A stretch of DNA of 24,000 nt from positions 742 through 24,741 of the forward strand of contig JACRID010000060.1 in NCBI GenBank assembly GCA_016220145.1, given 5' to 3'. A program made the translations under genes and the position numbers. The notes under the pieces were generated by a model. The model worked only from the letters and a program-made list of their open reading frames with translations. It was not told where the DNA came from and ran no database searches. Source of the DNA: Candidatus Peregrinibacteria bacterium. GTDB taxonomy: Bacteria; Patescibacteriota; Gracilibacteria; UBA1369; UM-FILTER-53-11. This document shows positions 9,854-24,000 of this stretch, piece after piece (within the stretch, counting starts at the first letter, position 1; each line of letters opens with the position of its first letter).

Positions 9854-9958
9854 GTCATCCTGAATTTATTTCAGGATCTAAATAAAATTATATTGATTAT
9901 GCCACGCGGGATTCTGAAACCCCGAAACGAGTTCAGGGCAGGCAAGTTCAGAATGACA
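9854..9958. repeat. Palindromic element with terminal inverted repeats (MITE/REP-like), copy 1
   Basis: The left end GTCATCCTGAATTTATTTCAGGATC (9854-9878) is itself a hairpin: ATCCTGAA 9857-9864 pairs with TTCAGGAT 9870-9877. The right end GCAAGTTCAGAATGAC (to ~9958) is the inverted copy of the left terminus. There is an internal CTGAA...TTCAG hairpin (9914-9936). A second copy lies at 17884-17977. Confidence 0.65.
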
Positions 9959-11537: not shown

Positions 11538-13070
11538 TCACACTTCCTCCCTTACTTCACTAGGCTCCGTCTTTCTTAAGAGGCTCCACATATCCTTCGA
11601 AACAGCTTTTGTTAGCAACATGCACGCCACGAAAACGATTCCGCCGATCGGCATTAAGATAAACAGGCTCTTCGTGAAAAGCAGTTTGTTGAAGTAGTCG
11701 GTGATGGAATTCAAAACAATTCCCATCACAAGCGCCGAAAACGCAGTCTTCGCCAAGAACGGCAAGTCCCAAATCCCACGGATTCTTTTCTTCGTGCGTA
11801 TAAAAAGGCACGCGAGCATCGTTAATTCCGAGGCCGCCGCAGAAATCGATGCGCCAATAAATCCATACCGTGGTGCCAAAAATAAATTTAATCCGACATT
11901 AACGATTACCGTAATCCCATTAATCCACAAAAGCTCCACCTGTCGCCCCATTGCAACCAACGTGTAGCTTAGCGCAACGTGAATATAAGTGAACGTCATT
12001 GCCACCAGCAAAATTTTAAGCGCCAAATCGGAACCCCAAATAAAGCCGGTTGCTGTGCGTTCCGTCAAAAAGTCTGGGCTGCTCACCGCGGCCGTTATTG
12101 GCCACGCCAAAACGTAACCGCCAACCATGATAGGTATAGCCATTGCCGCCAATGCGTCAATTGAATAGCGAACAATGCGGCCGGTCTTTTCATTAATACT
12201 GTCGAGGCTTATCGTCAAAAGCGGCAAAACCGAATTCATAAAATAATGCGGAAGAATTTGCAGAATTTCCAAAAAGCGCATTGGTACGCCATAATATCCA
12301 ATCTGCTCTTTCATCTCAAATAAGGACAACATGACAGTGCCCATGCGGAAATAAATGGTGCCGAGAACCAGTGCGGTTCCATACGGCAGTGCCTTCACTA
12401 AAACTTCTTTCCAAAATTTGAAATCAAATTGAAAAGAAATTGGTATTAATTTTGTAGACGCCGCGTACGTCGTGACGACATTGATCAACCCGCCGCCGAT
12501 CCAGCCCAAAAGCAAATGAGGAAAGCCAGCGACCGGGTCGTTCGGATACAGATACAATATGGTTGCCAAAATGTAGCCGACAGTAAATATTTTACTGATT
12601 AAAATTGAGATTGATGCCCATTTCATGCGCAAATGGAACTGCAAAACCGACGACATTGTGCCGGCAATTAAGGTAAAAACCGTGGCGATGGAAACCAACA
12701 AAATGCCAAATGGAATATGGCTGCCGCGGTATGCGGGCATCACGGCCGCAATGAGTGCGCCAATCCCCAAAGCAAATATCGCCAGTCCGGTGCGCATGGA
12801 CAAAACATTCCCGACGATTTTTTGGATGGCGGATTTTTCATTCGAATGCGCCATCTCGCGCACGGCGATTGTAAACAAGCCAAAATCCGCGATTATCGCG
12901 AACATGGCGGTGTAGTCATAAATGGTCGTATATTCGCCATAAGTGCTTTTGGTCAGGTAGTTGGTGATGAATTTTACGCTGACTATTCCAAGGACCGCGG
13001 TTACAACCTTTCCTATAACTTGCCACGCGGTATTCGAAAGAATTTTTCTGGCTTGCGACATCTTCCCCAT
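11538..13070 (-). CDS. MOP-superfamily lipid-linked oligosaccharide flippase (Wzx/MurJ-like polysaccharide biosynthesis protein)
   Basis: 510 aa and strongly hydrophobic throughout, with roughly 12-14 predicted TM segments. The N-terminus ILSNTAWQVIGKVVTAVLGIVSVKFITNYL...YGEYTTIY resembles Wzx/Polysacc_synt proteins. Its position beside murD is compatible with lipid II export. Confidence 0.7.
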   Translation of the reverse strand: MGKMSQARKILSNTAWQVIGKVVTAVLGIVSVKFITNYLTKSTYGEYTTIYDYTAMFAIIADFGLFTIAVREMAHSNEKSAIQKIVGNVLSMRTGLAIFALGIGALIAAVMPAYRGSHIPFGILLVSIATVFTLIAGTMSSVLQFHLRMKWASISILISKIFTVGYILATILYLYPNDPVAGFPHLLLGWIGGGLINVVTTYAASTKLIPISFQFDFKFWKEVLVKALPYGTALVLGTIYFRMGTVMLSLFEMKEQIGYYGVPMRFLEILQILPHYFMNSVLPLLTISLDSINEKTGRIVRYSIDALAAMAIPIMVGGYVLAWPITAAVSSPDFLTERTATGFIWGSDLALKILLVAMTFTYIHVALSYTLVAMGRQVELLWINGITVIVNVGLNLFLAPRYGFIGASISAAASELTMLACLFIRTKKRIRGIWDLPFLAKTAFSALVMGIVLNSITDYFNKLLFTKSLFILMPIGGIVFVACMLLTKAVSKDMWSLLRKTEPSEVREEV

Positions 13071-13184
13071 TTTAGCGCATTTCCTGTATCCTACACACGA
13101 GCAAAGCGAGTGTGCTTCGTTCTTTCGTCCCCGTTAGGGCGTTCGGGAGGGGGACGGAGAGTGGCTGCGCTCCATAAAATCACC

Positions 13185-14288
13185 ATGCAAGAACTGAAGC
13201 CTAAACTTGAAGAACTTAATCGCCTGATTCTGCGCGGGCTGGATTGTCTTGATGTTCCCAGGCTGAAAAAACGCATTGGGGAACTGGAAGAAATCACCAG
13301 CGCGCCGGAATTTTGGAGCAATCAAAGGCATGCAAAAGAAATTGGTCAGGAGTTGAAGCATCTGCAGGTTTTGGTGAAAGATTGGGAGGATTCAAAACGC
13401 GATGTTGATGAGCTTTCGGCCATGTTGCCGACGATTCACCCTGAAGATGATCCAAAGGCGGCGGAGGAATTTCGCGGAATGGTGGCGGAGTTGGGACATC
13501 GTTTTGAGAGGTTAAATCGCGAATCTTTCTTCTCTAGCAAATATGACAAAAATAACGTGATTATTTTGATTCACGCGGGAACGGGAGGAAAAGACGCCCA
13601 GGATTGGGCCCAGATGCTGATGCGAATGTATGTAAGATATGCGGAAAGGCGCGGCTACGGTGTGGAAATTTTGGACGAGTCATATGGCGAAGAAGTCGGC
13701 ATGAAAAGCGCCACAATTTTGATCTCGGGAATATATGCATATGGCTATTTGAAGGGAGAAAAGGGCGTTCACAGATTGGTGCGCCTCTCACCATTTAATG
13801 CGAAAAATTCGCGCGAAACCTCGTTTTCGTTGGTGGAAGTGATGCCGGAAGTGCCGGAAGCGATCGATATAACGATAAAATCGGAAGAGTTACAGCTGGA
13901 TGCCTTTAGAGCCGGCGGAAAGGGAGGACAAAATGTGAATAAGGTAAGTTCGGCGGTTCGGCTTACTCATCTCCCGACGGGAATTGTTGTGACTTGCCAG
14001 AGCGAAAGGTCGCAGATCCAAAACCGCGAACAGGCGATGACGATTTTGCAATCGAAACTTGCTCAACTGCAGGACGAAAAGAAACTTGAGGAAATGAAGG
14101 AGTTGAAGGGCAAACGCGTGGAAATGTCATGGGGAAATCAAATTCGCTCGTATGTTTTGCATCCGTATACGATGGTAAAAGATCACCGGACGGATTATGA
14201 AACTTCCCAGACGGCAAAGGTATTAGATGGCGACCTGGACGGTTTTATAGAAGCCGAAATTGAGTGGGCGGCGCGTTCTAAACAATAG
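13185..14288 (+). CDS. prfB: Peptide chain release factor 2 (no programmed frameshift)
   Basis: It carries the RF2-specific SPF motif (RLVRLSPFNAKNSRETSF) and the GGQ motif (AGGKGGQNVNKVSSAVRLTHLPTGIVV). The N-terminus MQELKPKLEELNRLILRGLDCLD aligns with the RF2 start. The tracked ORF begins at 12717, but ATG 13185 gives a normal 367-aa RF2. The usual CTT TGA C shift site is replaced by in-frame CTT GAT G (13248-13254). Confidence 0.93.
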   Translation: MQELKPKLEELNRLILRGLDCLDVPRLKKRIGELEEITSAPEFWSNQRHAKEIGQELKHLQVLVKDWEDSKRDVDELSAMLPTIHPEDDPKAAEEFRGMVAELGHRFERLNRESFFSSKYDKNNVIILIHAGTGGKDAQDWAQMLMRMYVRYAERRGYGVEILDESYGEEVGMKSATILISGIYAYGYLKGEKGVHRLVRLSPFNAKNSRETSFSLVEVMPEVPEAIDITIKSEELQLDAFRAGGKGGQNVNKVSSAVRLTHLPTGIVVTCQSERSQIQNREQAMTILQSKLAQLQDEKKLEEMKELKGKRVEMSWGNQIRSYVLHPYTMVKDHRTDYETSQTAKVLDGDLDGFIEAEIEWAARSKQ

Positions 14289-17883: not shown

Positions 17884-17977
17884 GTCATGCTGAATTTATT
17901 GCAGCATCTGCCCGCCTGCCGGTAGGCGGGGATACCAAAACCACCGCAGGGCGGGGCGCAGCAAGTTCAGGATGACA
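17884..17977. repeat. Palindromic element with terminal inverted repeats (MITE/REP-like), copy 2
   Basis: The left end GTCATGCTGAATTTATTGCAGCATC (17884-17908) matches 22 of 25 nt of copy 1. The right end GCAAGTTCAGGATGACA (17961-17977) matches the copy 1 right end. There is an internal GC hairpin, CCCGCCT gccggt AGGCGGG (17911-17930). Confidence 0.65.
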
Positions 17978-18039: not shown

Positions 18040-18300
18040 ATGAAGATAAAAAAACGGCATTTTTCACTCCTTAAAAAGTACCTGTGGTGGTATCGCGGGG
18101 ACGCCAAGGATGTTTTCGACAAGGTTAAAACAAATAAAATCATTACGTATGTTTTGAACTTTGGAGATTACGGAGATCTCAATAAGCTACTCCCCATTTT
18201 CTCAAAAAACGATATAAAAAAAACGCTCGAAACTCCGCTTCACGGCGTGTGGGACAAGAAATCGCTGAATTTTTGGACGCTTTATTTCGGCAAAGATTGA
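18040..18300 (+). CDS. Small hypothetical protein, putative partner/antitoxin of the downstream nucleotidyltransferase
   Basis: 86-aa ORF with ATG start. Its stop is 3 nt before the next start, a translationally coupled layout. I recognise no domain with confidence; the role is assigned by position only. Confidence 0.45.
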   Translation: MKIKKRHFSLLKKYLWWYRGDAKDVFDKVKTNKIITYVLNFGDYGDLNKLLPIFSKNDIKKTLETPLHGVWDKKSLNFWTLYFGKD

Positions 18301-18303
18301 CTT

Positions 18304-18948
18304 ATGCATATTGATGTTTTGCCATCTCAACAACGGAATCTGGCCAAGCTCATTGGAAACTGGCCGCCAGCAAAAGATTTTTATCTTGCCGGAGGAACAG
18401 CTTTGACTTTGCAGATAGGTCACCGCCGGTCCGCGGATTTTGATTTTTTTTCCAAGAAAGCCTTTTCCGCAGAGAAATTATTGGAAAATATTGAGGATTA
18501 TTTCAAGATGCCGGTTCGGGTTTTACAGATAGATAATCATACTTTGACGATTTTACTGAAAGACGTACGCGTAAGTTTTTTTGGCGCTTATGGGTTTCCC
18601 CTGATCGGTAAGCTTTTGCGCGACTTTTATTTCCCGGTCGCATCTGCGGAAGATATTTTCGCCATGAAACTGCTTGCAATTCAACACCGTACCGAAATGA
18701 AAGATTACGTCGATATTTTGGCTCTAATTGAGCAATCCGGGATAAATTTGCAAAAAGGGATTAGTTTGGCCCAAAAGAAATTTAGCGCATCTTTTAACTC
18801 CATGATTTCCCTTAAAGCATTGGTTTATTTTGACGATTTGGATTCGCGCGAACTATTCGCAATCGCCTTTGTAGGGAAAAAATCGCCTATCAATTTTAAA
18901 TTGCTGAAACAAAAGCTCATCTCAGAGGTTAGGTCTGTTCAAATATAA
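18304..18948 (+). CDS. AbiEii/AbiGii-family nucleotidyltransferase (type IV toxin-antitoxin toxin-like)
   Basis: The N-terminal motif FYLAGGTALTLQIGHRRSADFDFF matches the GGTAL...HR-x-S-x-D-x-D-F signature of the AbiEii (DUF1814) family. The later KDYVDILAL matches its KD-x-x-D segment. Confidence 0.65.
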   Translation: MHIDVLPSQQRNLAKLIGNWPPAKDFYLAGGTALTLQIGHRRSADFDFFSKKAFSAEKLLENIEDYFKMPVRVLQIDNHTLTILLKDVRVSFFGAYGFPLIGKLLRDFYFPVASAEDIFAMKLLAIQHRTEMKDYVDILALIEQSGINLQKGISLAQKKFSASFNSMISLKALVYFDDLDSRELFAIAFVGKKSPINFKLLKQKLISEVRSVQI

Positions 18949-18960
18949 GTGAGACTTCTT

Positions 18961-20049
18961 TTACCTTCTTGGTAACCGCAAAAGGCCATACAGCGTTTTT
19001 TTATATACGATATCGAACGCCGGCGGATATTTTATTTCTTTCCCGCCGAATTTTTTCTTAAATTCAGTGACGCCCTTCCACGGATGGTTTGAGTCGTCGG
19101 CCGGTGCGATCCCCAAAAAATCATAAAACTTCAAATCGCGTTTTTTGGCTTCCAAAATAGCTTCCCATTGCAGTAAATATGGCGCCATAAGGTTGCGGTC
19201 GGCGCCGGAGGAGGCTCCATAGTAGTAAATTGCAGTATCTTTATAAAAAGTGGCAATAAGTCCGGCCGTTACTTTTTTGGTTTCGGGTTCGTATGCCAAA
19301 AACAGCGCAGACATATTTTCTTGCCCCAGCGTTTTTAAGAAATTTTCATAGAATGAGCATGGATGAATTCCGAATTCATCTCGGGCGGCTGTCGTTTTTA
19401 GAATTTCATAAAATTCATCAAAGTCTTTTTGAGGAACATCTTCGAATTTTTTAAACATGCGCACATGCACGCCTTTACGCACAGCGACGCCAATATTGTA
19501 ACGGCCTTTTGGCTTCATTTGAGCCAAAATCTCCTCCTCCGACCCCTCGATATTTAATACCAAGGTGTGCTCCGGCGTAAATCGGTGCGGCGCATTACAA
19601 ATCTTAAAATTCTTCTTTAATTCAGAGGTCCAACTTTGATTCCAAGATGCCGGCGGCTCAATTCTGGCAAAAATCGCCTTTTCCTCCGCCGCCAGTCTTT
19701 TTAAATCCTCAAAAATCTCTTCCTTAAAACCCAGCGGTCCAAACGGCACCCAAAGCCAAGAAAACCCAAGCGGTAGCTTAATTTTAATAACCAAACAGCT
19801 CGCCTCGCCCAGGCCGAGCCGCGGCGTGGGCAGGCTAAGGCCTGATGCCGTCCCCAAGCTGGGGCGGCCTACTGCATTACTGCGCCCAAAGGGCGCATCC
19901 TTTTCCTTTGTCTCAAGCACCCAAAACTTGCTACGATACGGAATCGTTTTTTGAAATTCCCCAAACGCCAAAGACTGGAACAGGGTTCCGGCCGGATGGC
20001 GCTTTACAGTTTTTTCGTAATTTAATTCTTCGAAGTGTGACACGTTCAC
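18961..20049 (-). CDS. FemAB-family peptidoglycan interpeptide-bridge aminoacyltransferase (FemX/MurM-like)
   Basis: 362 aa with GTG start, 3 nt downstream of the ftsZ stop. Family-typical segments are LFQSLAFGEFQK, MKPKGRYNIGVAVRKGV, TAIYYYGASS...RNLMAPYLLQWEAILEAKKRDLKFYDFLGI and WKGVTEFKKKFGG. It contains a ~34-codon repeat-derived insertion (see the repeat at 19796-19900). Confidence 0.85.
   Translation of the reverse strand: MNVSHFEELNYEKTVKRHPAGTLFQSLAFGEFQKTIPYRSKFWVLETKEKDAPFGRSNAVGRPSLGTASGLSLPTPRLGLGEASCLVIKIKLPLGFSWLWVPFGPLGFKEEIFEDLKRLAAEEKAIFARIEPPASWNQSWTSELKKNFKICNAPHRFTPEHTLVLNIEGSEEEILAQMKPKGRYNIGVAVRKGVHVRMFKKFEDVPQKDFDEFYEILKTTAARDEFGIHPCSFYENFLKTLGQENMSALFLAYEPETKKVTAGLIATFYKDTAIYYYGASSGADRNLMAPYLLQWEAILEAKKRDLKFYDFLGIAPADDSNHPWKGVTEFKKKFGGKEIKYPPAFDIVYKKTLYGLLRLPRR
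19796..19900. repeat. GC-rich multi-hairpin repeat, long copy, inserted in-frame in the femAB-family CDS
   Basis: It shares AGGCCGAGCCGCGGC and GGC(C)TACTGCATTA(C/T)TGCGCCC(A/G)AAGGGCGCATCC with 23066-23131. Hairpins are TGCGCCC aaa GGGCGCA (19881-19897) and CCCCA agc TGGGG (19852-19864). It is translated on the minus strand as DAPFGRSNAVGRPSLGTASGLSLPTPRLGLGEAS. Confidence 0.7.
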
Positions 20050-20052
20050 ATT

Positions 20053-21216
20053 TTACCCTACTTTCTTCCTAATGAAGGCGGGAATATCGAGTTCGCTTTC
20101 CGTTGGGCGGGAAGATGACGTTCCCCCCGGAGTTGTCTGCAAACCGGCATGTTCTCTCTGGAAGAAGGAAGGTTTTTCGCGTTTTGCTTCGTCGAAGCCG
20201 GTTGCGATAACCGTAACCTTGATTTCGCCGGTGTAAGAATCATTAACAACGGCACCAAAGATAACGGTTGCATCCGGATCGGCAGCCTCGGTAATAATTC
20301 TGGCAGCCTCATCAACCTCAAACATCGAAAGGTCGTTGCCGCCGGTAACGTTGAACAGAATGCCTTTTGCGCCGGCAATATCCATCTCAAGAAGTGGGCT
20401 TTCCACCGCGGCTTTTGCGGCTTCAACGGCGCGATTTTCGCCGGAACCGTAACCAATACCCATAAGAGCGGAGCCGGAATTCTGCATAACGGTGCGAACA
20501 TCGGCGAAGTCGACATTGATCATACCGTGGACGGTGATGATGTCGGCAATGCCCTGAACGCCCTGGCGAAGTACGTCATCCACAACGGCGAACGCATCCA
20601 TCAAAGGTGTCTTTTTGTCGATAATGGAAAGTATTCTGTCGTTTGGAATTGTAATCAGTGTATCAACTTTTCCGCGTAGATTTTCAAGTCCATCTTCGGC
20701 TTGTTGTTTCCTCTTCAGTCCTTCGAACGAGAAAGGTTTTGTAACAACTGCAACAGTCAAAATTCCCATTTCTTTTGCAATTTCAGCAACAATTGGAGCG
20801 CCGCCGGTACCGGTTCCTCCTCCAAGTCCGCATGTAATGAAAACCATGTCTGCGCCTTCAAGAGCCGTCTTGATCTCTTCTGAACTTTCTTCCGCAGCCT
20901 GACGACCCGTGTCCGGATTCGCGCCGGCTCCAAGTCCGCGAGTCGTGGCCTTGCCCACGTTAATTTTGGAGGGCGCCTCGCAATGATAAAGAGCCTGCGC
21001 GTCAGTATTCATCGCAATAAATTCAATACCCTTTACGCTCGTCTTCATCATGCGGGAGACTGCGTTACTGCCGCCGCCGCCGACGCCGATGACTTTCAAG
21101 CTGGCAACCGGGCTGATCTCCGGCGTCACCATTTCAACGGTCGCCGGTCTCTTTTTGAAAGTGGACGATTTTCCTGCAAAGAGATTTCGGAGAGAATCTT
21201 TTTGTTGCGGATCCAT
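20053..21216 (-). CDS. ftsZ: Cell division GTPase FtsZ
   Basis: It has the tubulin signature [10 protein letters not shown] and [10 protein letters not shown], plus the C-terminal conserved peptide DIPAFIRKK. Confidence 0.97.
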
Positions 21217-21254
21217 AGAATAAAAGTTAGGTAATAGATATGGTTAAAATCGAC

Positions 21255-22493
21255 TCAAGGCAAAAGCTGTTTTGCCCAAGTCTTAAAGCCGGAGAATGCT
21301 TTTTTGATGCCAAGGCCTTTGAAACTGCTGCCAAAAGACCGTGATTCAAATCGTGTTCCAAGAATCAAAAGTCCGATTGCCGTTGCGTATGCCGGATCCT
21401 CGATTTTGTCGACAACGCCTTCGAAATTTTGAGGGAAACCGATTTGAACAGGAAGATTTAAAGCCTCGCGGGCCAAATCGATAATTCCCGGGATTTTCAC
21501 CGCGGCGCCGGTGAGAACAACGCCTGCCGGCAACATGCCGTCGCGGTGGATTTTCGCCAGCTCTTCTTTTACAAGCATAAAGATTTCACTATATCTCGCC
21601 TCGATAATTTCAACCAACTGCCTCTTGGAAATTTTTTGCATGTCGATTTTGCTCAAGCTGCTCAGATCTATCACTTCACGGTCATTGACTTCGGTTGGGA
21701 CGCATGAGCCATATTCAATTTTGATTTTATCGGCGGTGTCGATGGAAGTTTTGAGTCCGATGGCAATGTCGTTTGTTACATTTTCACCGCCGACCGGAAT
21801 CACAGCCGTGTGAAGAACTGTTCCTTCTTCGAAGACGGAAACGGATGTTCCGCCCGAACCAATATCTACGACAACAACGCCGAGTTCTTTTTGTCTTTTT
21901 GACAATACCGCTTCGGATGAAGCCAATACGGCTGGAATTACATCATCAATATCCACGCCGGCCTGCAAAACGCATTTTTCAATATTGCGGACAGTCGGGG
22001 CCATGCCGGTAACAATATGGGCATCAACCTCAAGACGAATGCCGGTCATGCCGACCGGATATTTAATCCCCTTTTGTTCGTCCACCGTGAATGACTTTGG
22101 AATAATGCGCAGAATTCTGCGGTTGTTTGGAATTGCGACGGCCTGTGCGGCTTCGACGACGCGATCCAAGTCTTCTTCGGTGATTTCATTGCCCGGATGG
22201 GAAATGGCAATCACGCCTTTGCTGTTAAAAGCTTCGATGTGATTTCCGGAAACGCCGAGAAATACATGATGAACCGGCTCCCCCGCCATGCGTTCCGCAT
22301 CCTCAAGAGAAGTTGTGATGTTGTTGATTGTCTCTTCGACATCAATCACTTGCCCTTTACGAATACCGGTGGAAGGCGCAATGCCAACCCCGATGACATT
22401 TGGAGTCTGGGTTTTCTCATCAATCGTTCCGACCACCGTTCGGATTTTGGATGAACCGACATCTAAACCGGCTAAGAAACGTACTTTGGACAT
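21255..22493 (-). CDS. ftsA: Cell division protein FtsA
   Basis: It has the actin-like ATPase phosphate-1 motif GLDVGSSKIRTVVG and VVDIGSGGTSVSVF. It lies immediately upstream of ftsZ on the same strand. Length is 412 aa. Confidence 0.95.
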   Translation of the reverse strand: MSKVRFLAGLDVGSSKIRTVVGTIDEKTQTPNVIGVGIAPSTGIRKGQVIDVEETINNITTSLEDAERMAGEPVHHVFLGVSGNHIEAFNSKGVIAISHPGNEITEEDLDRVVEAAQAVAIPNNRRILRIIPKSFTVDEQKGIKYPVGMTGIRLEVDAHIVTGMAPTVRNIEKCVLQAGVDIDDVIPAVLASSEAVLSKRQKELGVVVVDIGSGGTSVSVFEEGTVLHTAVIPVGGENVTNDIAIGLKTSIDTADKIKIEYGSCVPTEVNDREVIDLSSLSKIDMQKISKRQLVEIIEARYSEIFMLVKEELAKIHRDGMLPAGVVLTGAAVKIPGIIDLAREALNLPVQIGFPQNFEGVVDKIEDPAYATAIGLLILGTRFESRSFGSSFKGLGIKKAFSGFKTWAKQLLP

Positions 22494-22931
22494 AAGTGTT
22501 TAGGTTGTTTTGCTGACGCAAAACGTTATTTATAACCGAGTTGTGACTCGGTCTGTTGGAATAAAAAGCGTTCCAAAAATAGTACACTTAATCACCTAAC
22601 GCAAATTTTTCCGGTCATTTCTTGGCTTTTACAAGCCCCGTGTTCCAATTTTGTACTCATTTTTTTTGTTTACATACCGCCAAAAACGGAGGCTTTGACG
22701 CGCCGTTTTTTTTGTATTCTCGCGGTCGATTTTTTGGCTTCCAAATGCGGAAATATTAGTTAAATGATGATCAAAAATATTACTCATGTTTACCTGCGAC
22801 GTAATTTTTTATACAGAGTTTGTTTTTCGTGTTTGTATAGACGCAAAAGCGACTAGTCAAATTTTTGGCGTTTTTGTGTTTTTTTCTCGGGAGCTTCGTA
22901 AAAATGGTAAAAATTTGGTTTTTGCGCGGAG

Positions 22932-22969
22932 CGGGCGGTTTTTGGCTGCGCGCAGCCAAAAACCGCCCG
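22932..22969. repeat. 38-bp perfect palindrome
   Basis: CGGGCGGTTTTTGGCTGCG|CGCAGCCAAAAACCGCCCG has 19-nt arms, no spacer and no mismatch. It lies in the 550-bp gap between the exonuclease stop (23044) and the ftsA start (22493). Confidence 0.9.
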
Positions 22970-23043
22970 TCGGTTACGCGGTAAATACCCATCGTATATC
23001 TTTGCAATAATTCGGGCCTATAGCGCAAGTTGATTTCGTCGTT

Positions 23044-24000
23044 TTAGGCGAATAGAGAGCTTTGCGCAGGCTCATCTCCTAGGCCGAGCCGCGGCTCGGC
23101 TACTGCATTATTGCGCCCGAAGGGCGCATCCTTATACATTTCGTCAACTCTTCGGATCAAACTTTTGAATCCAAATCCGGCAAGGGTTTGCTTAACCGAC
23201 TTGGCATCAAAGTGTTTTGCGCGGCATGCCGGCAGGTCAAAATCCAATGGTACATTTACTTCCAAAGTCGCCAATTTTTTGCTCATAAACGCATTTTCTC
23301 GCGAAGCCTCAAGTTTCTTCCTCACACCCTCCGAAATTGCCCCAAGATGTTCATAGATATTTTCCAAATTTCCGAAATCTTGCAAAAGTTTTGTCGCACC
23401 CTTGTCTCCAATTCCCATCACCCCTGGAATATTATCCGAATTATCTCCGGCTAGCCCTTTGTAGTCCGGAATTTGCGCCGGGGTAATCCCATATTCCTTT
23501 TTAATTTCATCCGCGCTGAAAATCTCCGCCTCCTTAAAACCTTTCGTCGGATACAAAATAGAAACTTTGTCGGATGCAATTTGAAACATGTCAAAATCGC
23601 CACTCGCAATCAAGGTGTGCACGTCGGTCTTTGGCCCAAGCAAAGCCACAATTGCCGCCAAAATGTCGTCCGCTTCAAATCCCTCAACTTCAAATCCCGG
23701 AATTCCAAAAGCCGCAACCACCTCTTTTACCAGCGGAATTTGATCGTAAAGTTCTTGAGGGGCCTTAACTCGCGTCGCTTTGTATTCCTTATATGCCTTA
23801 TGGCGAAAAGTCGGCCCTTTTCTGTCGAATGCCACGGCCAAATAATCCGGTTTATGATTCGCCAAAATTGTCAAAAGTATGCTGGTAAAGCCAAAAACCG
23901 CGTTTGTTGGAGCGCCCGTCGGGCTCTTAAAAAACGGCGGAATTGCATAAAACCCCCTATATATAAGTCCGGAACCATCTATTAGTATTAGTTTTTCCAT
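23044..24000 (-). CDS. Stand-alone 5'-3' exonuclease / flap endonuclease (DNA polymerase I N-terminal domain homolog)
   Basis: The N-terminus MEKLILIDGSGLIYRGFYAIP...GAPTNAVFGFTSIL is the canonical PolI 5' nuclease start. The H3TH region reads DNIPGVMGIGDKGATKLL. At 318 aa there is no polymerase domain. The ATG is the last codon of the window (23998-24000). The last ~28 aa derive from the GC-rich repeat. Confidence 0.9.
   Translation of the reverse strand: MEKLILIDGSGLIYRGFYAIPPFFKSPTGAPTNAVFGFTSILLTILANHKPDYLAVAFDRKGPTFRHKAYKEYKATRVKAPQELYDQIPLVKEVVAAFGIPGFEVEGFEADDILAAIVALLGPKTDVHTLIASGDFDMFQIASDKVSILYPTKGFKEAEIFSADEIKKEYGITPAQIPDYKGLAGDNSDNIPGVMGIGDKGATKLLQDFGNLENIYEHLGAISEGVRKKLEASRENAFMSKKLATLEVNVPLDFDLPACRAKHFDAKSVKQTLAGFGFKSLIRRVDEMYKDAPFGRNNAVAEPRLGLGDEPAQSSLFA
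23066..23131. repeat. GC-rich multi-hairpin repeat, short copy, forming the 3' end of the exonuclease CDS
   Basis: It contains an 18-bp perfect palindrome GCCGAGCCGCGGCTCGGC (23083-23100) and the hairpin TGCGCCC gaa GGGCGCA (23112-23128). The sequence matches the 19796-19900 element apart from a ~40-bp internal segment that this copy lacks. It is translated as DAPFGRNNAVAEPRLGLGDEPAQSSLFA-stop. Confidence 0.7.

Follow-up and report, generated by a model that had tools for sequence, protein, structure and literature searches.

An in-frame double-hairpin insertion in a femAB-family gene of Peregrinibacteria-like Patescibacteria: probable copy of a small dispersed palindromic repeat

Rickettsia palindromic elements (RPEs; Ogata et al. 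2000) are, according to PMC10969869, palindromic repeats that insert in frame into genes of a reduced genome, where they are translated and tolerated. Repetitive extragenic palindromic sequences (REPs) have as their signature a GC-rich palindrome headed by the tetranucleotide GTAG, and in E. coli the REP-associated tyrosine transposase (RAYT) cleaves at this motif (PMC3733652). The transposase family of RAYT type (IS200/IS605) inserts without target duplication, REP ends can donate stop codons to flanking open reading frames (ORFs), and REPs lying in frame within genes are reported, especially for genes of replication and repair (PMC3733652). The phyla given for GTAG and CGTC repeats in the survey of PMC3733652 do not include the Candidate Phyla Radiation (CPR; Patescibacteria). 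Here, we analyze a 24,000-nucleotide stretch of contig JACRID010000060.1 (hereafter the window) from a Peregrinibacteria-like member of the Patescibacteria, in which a GC-rich, hairpin-forming segment lies within a femAB-family gene. We conclude, with a probability of about 80%, that this segment belongs to a dispersed repeat family of a groundwater Peregrinibacteria-like lineage, whose small palindromic elements form two hairpins and are non-autonomous.

An earlier note, made from the window's sequence alone, had described the segment as an in-frame insertion of 34 codons composed of GC-rich hairpins, shared with the 3' end of a nearby exonuclease gene and behaving like an RPE. The two host genes and the parts of the element within them are as follows, with scores from our covariance model R1:

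18961-20049, minus strand: femAB-family gene, for a FemAB/FemX-family aminoacyl-tRNA-dependent peptidoglycan branch transferase (Pfam PF02388, E = 2e-39)
19810-19902, minus strand: long-form element in the fem gene, 93 nt = 31 codons (K50-L80), peptide KDAPFGRSNAVGRPSLGTASGLSLPTPRLGL; site empty in L001/L002, 12 aligned orthologs without it; R1 71 bits
19881-19897, minus strand: hairpin 1 of the fem copy, TGCGCCC-TTT-GGGCGCA, 7-bp stem (predicted folds)
19830-19868, minus strand: internal extra segment of the fem copy, 39 nt = 13 codons, with its own hairpin (GCCGCCCC-AGCT-TGGGGACGGC) (copy alignment)
19810-19829, minus strand: 3' module of the fem copy (CCACGCCGCGGCTCGGCCTG), common to the short form (block match and copy alignment)
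23044-24000, minus strand: stand-alone, FEN-like 5'-3' exonuclease gene (Pfam PF02739 and PF01367)
23080-23133, minus strand: short-form element in the exonuclease gene, 54 nt = 18 codons, lying 11 codons ahead of the stop, peptide KDAPFGRNNAVAEPRLGL; site empty in L006/L007; R1 83 bits
23083-23100, minus strand: hairpin 2 of the exonuclease copy, a perfect 18-nt palindrome GCCGAGCCGCGGCTCGGC with GTAG before it (block match and fold)

The fem insertion is stop-free and in frame within an intact ORF, as claimed earlier, and has a GC content of 69-71% compared with ~43% in the surrounding sequence. We aligned the protein residue by residue with 12 orthologs from several Peregrinibacteria and Gracilibacteria lineages and found no homologous segment at this position in any of them, whether in the two closest (P0002/L002 and P0003/L001, 77-79% identical) or in the ten more distant FemX-like sequences. 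In a motif scan of all 120 listed Fem homologues, no protein other than that of the window contained the element peptide. In the DNA of the orthologs, ACAAAAAAC is joined directly to GGCGAGGCG, whereas the window reads ...GGAA, the insert (AAGGATGCG...CTCGGCCTG) and then GGCGAGGCG, a net gain of 93 nt. Because the GEAS residues that follow are native (orthologs read ...GEASCLVI), the insertion itself stands and its size is corrected from 34 to 31 codons. An independent sequencing run yielded the Logan contig L005 (SRR12113407), which matches the window over 3 kb at 100% identity and spans the left fem junction, ruling out an assembly chimera as the source of the insert. This contig ends abruptly 30 nt into the element, as expected of a repeat or GC hairpin in a de Bruijn assembly, an observation that is suggestive only.

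In the exonuclease gene, the element is not the 3' end of the reading frame, as the earlier note had supposed, but a clean internal insertion between ...DEMY and GDEPAQSSLFA* that leaves the native C-terminus in place. The site is empty in two close relatives, P0121/L006 (protein 95% identical) and P0122/L007 (90%), which read GAAATGTAT followed directly by GGAGA; the window has GAAATGTAT, then exactly 54 nt (AAGGATGCGCCCTTCGGGCGCAATAATGCAGTAGCCGAGCCGCGGCTCGGCCTA), then GGAGA. Comparison of these filled and empty alleles revealed no target-site duplication at this site, as not a single base is duplicated.

Both blocks that the earlier note had named as common to the two genes were recovered from both, which confirms that they share one element: a 32-nt block (CTACTGCATTAYTGCGCCCRAAGGGCGCATCC) at 19869-19900 and 23100-23131, with a chance expectation of 0.00 in 100 shuffles, and a 15-nt block (AGGCCGAGCCGCGGC) that is exact at 19811-19825 and 23081-23095. 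Read in the sense of the host genes, the unit of ~54 nt consists of a 5' AAGGAT leader, hairpin 1 (TGCGCCC-NNN-GGGCGCA, 7 bp), an AT-rich spacer ending in the tag (ATAATGCA-GTAG), hairpin 2 (CCGAGCC..GGCTCGG) and a 3' CCTR tail. The 39 extra nucleotides of the fem copy sit directly after GTAG, and no second copy of this segment was found in the window and the related loci compared. Over the 51 positions that they share, the window copies show only ~2 differences. The host genes have a synonymous divergence (dS) of 0.7-1.3 from their element-free orthologs, so the copies are either much younger than the species splits or homogenised.

The GC-rich hairpins are likewise borne out, with a local GC content of 71%. 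For the GC-rich copies, folding as single-stranded DNA into two hairpins is more favourable than for shuffled sequences (z = -1.9 to -3.2), the exonuclease copy giving two 7-bp hairpins at z = -3.2. In an alignment of five copies, 96.6% of the model pairs can form, compared with 24-42% when the pairing register is slid.

Further copies of the nucleotide motif exist outside the fem gene and outside this genome. We searched by an exact-pattern scan of one genome per GTDB species, followed by an nhmmer profile and R1 on related loci, and ~143 kb of non-redundant related DNA yielded, with the two window copies counted in, five full and two partial copies as well as one degenerate pair of orthologous copies. 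A full copy lies inside a 209-amino-acid ORF of a metagenome-assembled genome (MAG; L003, JBBTWV010000041.1, MAG H32-bin004), in the same orientation and frame as in the window (EDAPLGRSNTVASPRLGL); the product is hypothetical, with a hydrophobic N-terminal segment that we read as a signal sequence, and an adjacent paralog lacks exactly that stretch. Two more full copies, both intergenic, occur in a Hainich MAG (L009), one directly upstream of the rpsP start codon, the other antisense between ftsA and ftsZ, where it provides the TGA stop codon of ftsA. The linker of another exonuclease (P0124/L008) carries a truncated in-frame copy of 36 nt, GAGGATGCGCCTCAGGGCGCAA... (EDAPQGANRASG), which must be an independent event because it lies two codons from the site used in the window. 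Finally, hairpin 1 recurs by itself in L017, where khpA and a pilin gene flank it. The 24-kb window holds 2-3 copies, and 20 kb of L009 hold 2. Intragenic copies always have the sense orientation and one frame, while intergenic copies occur in either orientation relative to their neighbour genes.

The degenerate pair lies ahead of the cell-division genes that separate the two host genes in the window:

22498-22560, plus strand: AT-rich double hairpin just upstream of the ftsA start codon, antisense to ftsA (R1 8.6 bits; fold z below)
21255-22493, minus strand: ftsA
20053-21216, minus strand: ftsZ

Its orthologous counterpart (L007 4127-4190) scores 19.9 bits with R1, and the two fold at z = -5.7 and -5.0. 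Their second hairpins differ by two compensatory pair changes (CCGAGT/ACTCGG compared with CCGAAC/GTTCGG). This double hairpin has the architecture of the element and is probably an old or divergent relative.

Broader searches added little. Exact-pattern scans of GTDB genomes, JGI metagenomes and IMG/VR yielded one true match in total, the copy in L003. Matches in a PEP-CTERM-like gene of JGI metagenome contigs (L004) and in GC-rich sequence of IMG/VR viral contigs (L015), which otherwise gave nothing, were rejected as chance. So were two R1 matches, one within a conserved glycosyltransferase motif of a GC-rich genome (L014 492-586) and one, weak and in GC-rich sequence, discarded on inspection (L009 5242-5353). 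A profile of the two aligned window peptides gave 11 matches among 1.84 billion representative proteins and no other true carrier, in a set that holds representatives at 50% identity and so hides lineage-specific insertions, such that this null is not evidence of absence. Five of these 11 were inspected and are translations of tandem or CRISPR repeats; the other six match in multiple stretches or none. A search of 5.8 billion proteins with a 79-residue concatenated query returned 74 candidates, none of which scored, the window's own protein included, and was uninformative. BLAST against plasmids and phages gave nothing relevant to the element.

We then asked how the host proteins accommodate the insertions. 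We modelled the Fem protein with AlphaFold2 on an alignment of 60 sequences. The model reached a pLDDT of 91.9 and a pTM of 0.88, and Foldseek matched it to FemX and FemA structures (FemX entries 6snr and 1ne9 with probability 1.0). In this model strands 39-46 and 84-91 flank the insert, which forms a coil with pLDDT < 50 at residues 53-72 and is thus predicted to be a disordered loop at the turn of a beta-hairpin in the FemX-like fold. The length of this turn varies among orthologs. A different GC-rich insertion of ~37 residues (ECGPRTCGPHRGVATGGVRAKGEPAAEGELGSEGLQG) occupies the same turn in a Peregrinibacteria ortholog (P0036, GCA_002788775.1; L014 10130-10240); we rejected it as a copy of the element, its sequence being unrelated, and the turn appears to be a recurrent insertion site.

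The earlier note had left open whether the segment is tolerated as a loop or impairs the gene, and the evidence favours tolerance. The window's Fem protein keeps all 32 family-invariant positions, and Nei-Gojobori estimates against element-free orthologs put the ratio of nonsynonymous to synonymous change (omega) at 0.11 in fem and at 0.035-0.06 in the exonuclease gene. Both host genes, which look essential, are therefore under purifying selection rather than decaying, and fem seems unimpaired as far as sequence can tell.

All 120 listed exonuclease homologs have Q-x-(S/T/A)-(L/M)-F as their C-terminus, and the linker ahead of it varies greatly in length. The insert occupies this linker, a structurally permissive place ahead of the conserved QxSLF tail. 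The tail of these stand-alone exonucleases (window 23044-23079) resembles a sliding-clamp-binding motif. One further exonuclease ortholog, P0133 (L012 1160-1215), carries 18 inserted residues (about TKEVETKNVAVPVDLEAA) that match the window element in linker position and in length; this insertion is AT-rich, lacks significant nucleotide similarity to the element, and may be a decayed copy.

In behaviour, the element is closest to the RPEs. Copies lie in frame in unrelated genes and encode a conserved peptide (fem, exonuclease, L003 and L008), as RPEs do in housekeeping genes; in both cases, by the account of RPEs in PMC10969869, the sites are tolerated by the fold, intergenic copies occur too, the host genome is small, and the repeat has no transposase of its own. 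The resemblance proposed in the earlier note holds at this level and not as family membership. The hosts are Patescibacteria rather than Alphaproteobacteria, and the unit measures ~54 nt (93 nt in the long form) as against ~100-150 bp in RPEs. RPEs also end in CGTC (PMC3733652), a tag present in none of our five full copies, which have GTAG instead (or its variant TTAG, as below). Given the differences in size and host phylum, homology to RPE families is very unlikely on this comparison.

In structure, the closest relatives are GTAG-tagged REPs. The element shares with them a GC-rich imperfect palindrome with a 6-9-bp stem, within the 5-13 bp of REP palindromes, and a GTAG directly before it in the fem, exonuclease and L003 copies; also shared are the lack of a target-site duplication, degenerate tags (TTAG in both L009 copies) and the gift of a stop codon to ftsA in L009. 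It differs in that the tag is internal, between two different hairpins, so that it neither stands at an end nor forms part of an inverted doublet (REPIN/BIME), and in that neither the window nor the ~143 kb of related loci showed a gene for RAYT or any other Y1 transposase. REPs number tens to hundreds of dispersed copies per genome, and the repeats flank their cognate RAYT gene.

More distant parallels exist among organellar and other bacterial repeats. Fungal mitochondrial GC clusters and double-hairpin elements, as treated in PMC4478555 (citing Paquin et al. 2000), are likewise short, GC-rich, hairpin-forming and mobile in AT-richer compact genomes, include two-hairpin forms, and have no enzyme assigned to them; they are organellar and without sequence similarity to our element. 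The yeast GC42 family is described in PMC4478555 as leaving an AG target duplication or footprint, whereas the Peregrinibacteria element leaves no duplication. [quoted passage not shown] MITEs are, however, defined by terminal inverted repeats and target-site duplications. The ends of our element are complementary only as AGG...CCT and the exonuclease site shows no duplication, and we therefore rejected this assignment. Full-text literature searches found no description of such elements in Patescibacteria or CPR, in keeping with the earlier note's impression that they are uncharacterised in such genomes. Rickettsia and REP elements already provide examples of this behaviour, and for Patescibacteria/CPR we found no report of it.

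Three rival explanations have to be weighed against a dispersed selfish repeat. It is very improbable, in our view, that the peptide itself was selected, as a short linear motif (K/E)DAPxGRxN(A/T)V..PRLGL grafted for binding, localisation or as a protease site, with the DNA hairpins incidental. All four coding copies (fem, exonuclease, L003 ORF and L008 exonuclease) do share the sense orientation and frame 1 and give recognisably the same peptide, (K/E)DAPxGRxN..PRLGL, though one to three antisense frames, depending on the copy, are also stop-free. Once orientation is fixed, however, the shared frame follows of itself: in the sense orientation TAG (from GTAG) closes frame 2 and TAA (from GTAATG) closes frame 3, so that the single open frame makes every coding copy yield the same peptide. 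The differences between copies are mostly non-synonymous (F/L/Q, S/N, A/T, G/A, E/S, G/D), which argues against selection on the peptide, as do the intergenic copies in either orientation, the predicted disorder of the segment (pLDDT < 50), and hosts as unrelated in function as a cytoplasmic transferase, a nuclease and a hypothetical protein with a putative signal sequence. The protein search points the same way, with no other carrier and only tandem-repeat junk among the 50%-identity representatives. With n = 4, the common orientation is only a weak sign of a bias in orientation or of a constraint on the peptide; it could reflect a strand-specific insertion mechanism, or selection against the antisense orientation, in which hairpin 1 resembles an intrinsic terminator.

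A purely local event with no mobile family involved, in which ectopic gene conversion or hairpin-borne template switching carried the segment into fem from the exonuclease gene, 3.2 kb away, or in the opposite direction, would account for the proximity of the window copies, their common strand and nearly identical shared modules, and the scarcity of copies elsewhere. We consider it quite unlikely, since homologous copies occupy unrelated loci in other genomes: the hypothetical gene of L003, rpsP and ftsA/ftsZ in L009, the L008 linker at a different codon, and khpA/pilin in L017. That L005 breaks off within the element also hints, without proving it, at more copies on other contigs of this genome. 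Equally improbable to us is a functional RNA or DNA structure kept for use in mRNA stability, pausing or termination, or protein binding, as proposed for REPs, with the coding copies regulating their host mRNAs. Stable hairpins, the compensatory changes in the ftsA-upstream copy and the abutment of intergenic copies on start or stop codons speak for such a role, as does the terminator-like antisense strand of the fem copy: on the plus strand hairpin 1 is followed by TCCTT and a T-rich flank, the top-listed terminator-like site in 19600-23300. Rfam 15, on the other hand, gave no match at the gathering score and only chance-level matches (E 0.7-0.8) at the E-value threshold, placement relative to gene ends is inconsistent, and close orthologs of the same genes do without the coding copies, which are thus not needed for their expression.

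Several other identities were rejected outright. The segment is too short for an intein, an intron or a translational bypass and is in frame and stop-free, such that plain translation suffices; a solo CRISPR repeat was dismissed, as we saw neither an array nor any CRISPR-repeat resemblance; and no R/L box pattern of an integron attC site was seen.

The best reading remains a selfish REP/RPE-like element that persists only where an in-frame, stop-free insertion is tolerated. Copies are found both between and within genes, and within genes only as stop-free multiples of three at permissive places. The element would spread as DNA through its hairpins, most likely mobilised in trans by a tyrosine (HUH/Y1) transposase of IS200/IS605-RAYT type that is specific for single strands, which we infer because GTAG adjoins a GC-rich palindrome and insertion is precise and without target-site duplication. 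In host genes it would be translated as a disordered loop of 18 or 31 residues while the genes stay functional, and no host benefit would be needed to explain the data.

Several observations weigh against this reading. The copies are few (five full, two partial and one degenerate pair in ~143 kb), and high copy number is not demonstrated. No transposase of any kind, RAYT/Y1 (PF01797) included, was found in the window or the ~143 kb of related loci. GTAG is not universal, both L009 copies having TTAG, and lies inside the unit and not at its end. The stem of hairpin 1 is invariant across the full GC-rich copies, so that covariation support is weak there, and all four coding copies share one orientation and frame despite their one to three open antisense frames. 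A bolder version of the selfish-repeat reading, which we regard as unlikely, is an active mobile-DNA system of ultra-small CPR genomes, driven by a hairpin-recognising enzyme that is not a recognisable RAYT or by host replication or repair; the strict sense orientation in genes would then reflect replication-coupled strand-specific insertion, and the element would systematically generate new surface loops in CPR proteins and possibly serve as a functional peptide tag.

The window lies on a contig of ~47% GC, and the closest named relatives of its proteins are MAGs of Candidatus Peregrinibacteria and Gracilibacteria; its syntenic relatives are Hainich groundwater assemblies and the Logan SRR2238xxxx series. 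Other genes in the window encode Mfd, DnaN, RNase J, MurD, a release factor, def, an aminotransferase, an aldehyde dehydrogenase and toxin-antitoxin proteins. The position directly downstream of fem holds, in the window (18040-18948) and in L002 (1354-2262), a gene for an AbiEii-family nucleotidyltransferase toxin together with a small ORF upstream of it; L001, L009 and L014 lack the gene there, which marks a variable toxin-antitoxin islet. Downstream of the exonuclease gene, a perfect 38-nt palindrome (22932-22969; CGGGCGGTTTTTGGCTGCG followed by CGCAGCCAAAAACCGCCCG) may be a bidirectional terminator or another repeat, and the independent contig L005 starts inside it.

A second repeat family of ~100 nt, unrelated to the double-hairpin element, occurs between genes at 9854-9958 and 17884-17977, one copy between the starts of the RNase J gene and murD and the other downstream of def. 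Both copies begin with GTCATSCTGAATTTATTKCAGSATCT and finish with GCAAGTTCAGRATGACA, and their terminal inverted repeats of ~11 nt (GTCATNCTGAA / TTCAGNATGAC) make the family MITE-like. The release-factor ORF as listed (12717-14288, 523 amino acids) overlaps a convergent polysaccharide-synthase ORF, and with orthologs of 304-368 amino acids its true start is probably near 13180. Ribosomal protein S16 of the Peregrinibacteria genome L014 (3929-4471) is annotated at 180 amino acids, compared with 104-125 in L009, L016 and L017, and may carry a C-terminal extension or another insertion.

Genomes of the CPR/Patescibacteria measure ~1 Mb and are usually called streamlined and repeat-poor. If our reading is right, selfish DNA still shapes proteins in this group, with a palindromic repeat remodelling loops in proteins of cell division and of the cell wall and in a replication nuclease. 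For annotators puzzled by lineage-specific insertions in CPR proteins, the repeat offers a concrete explanation of some of them. Short-read assemblies break at such elements, as in L005, which ends in one, and the elements can be mistaken for sequencing artefacts or novel domains. If the mobilising enzyme were identified, the REP/RAYT paradigm would reach a new superphylum.

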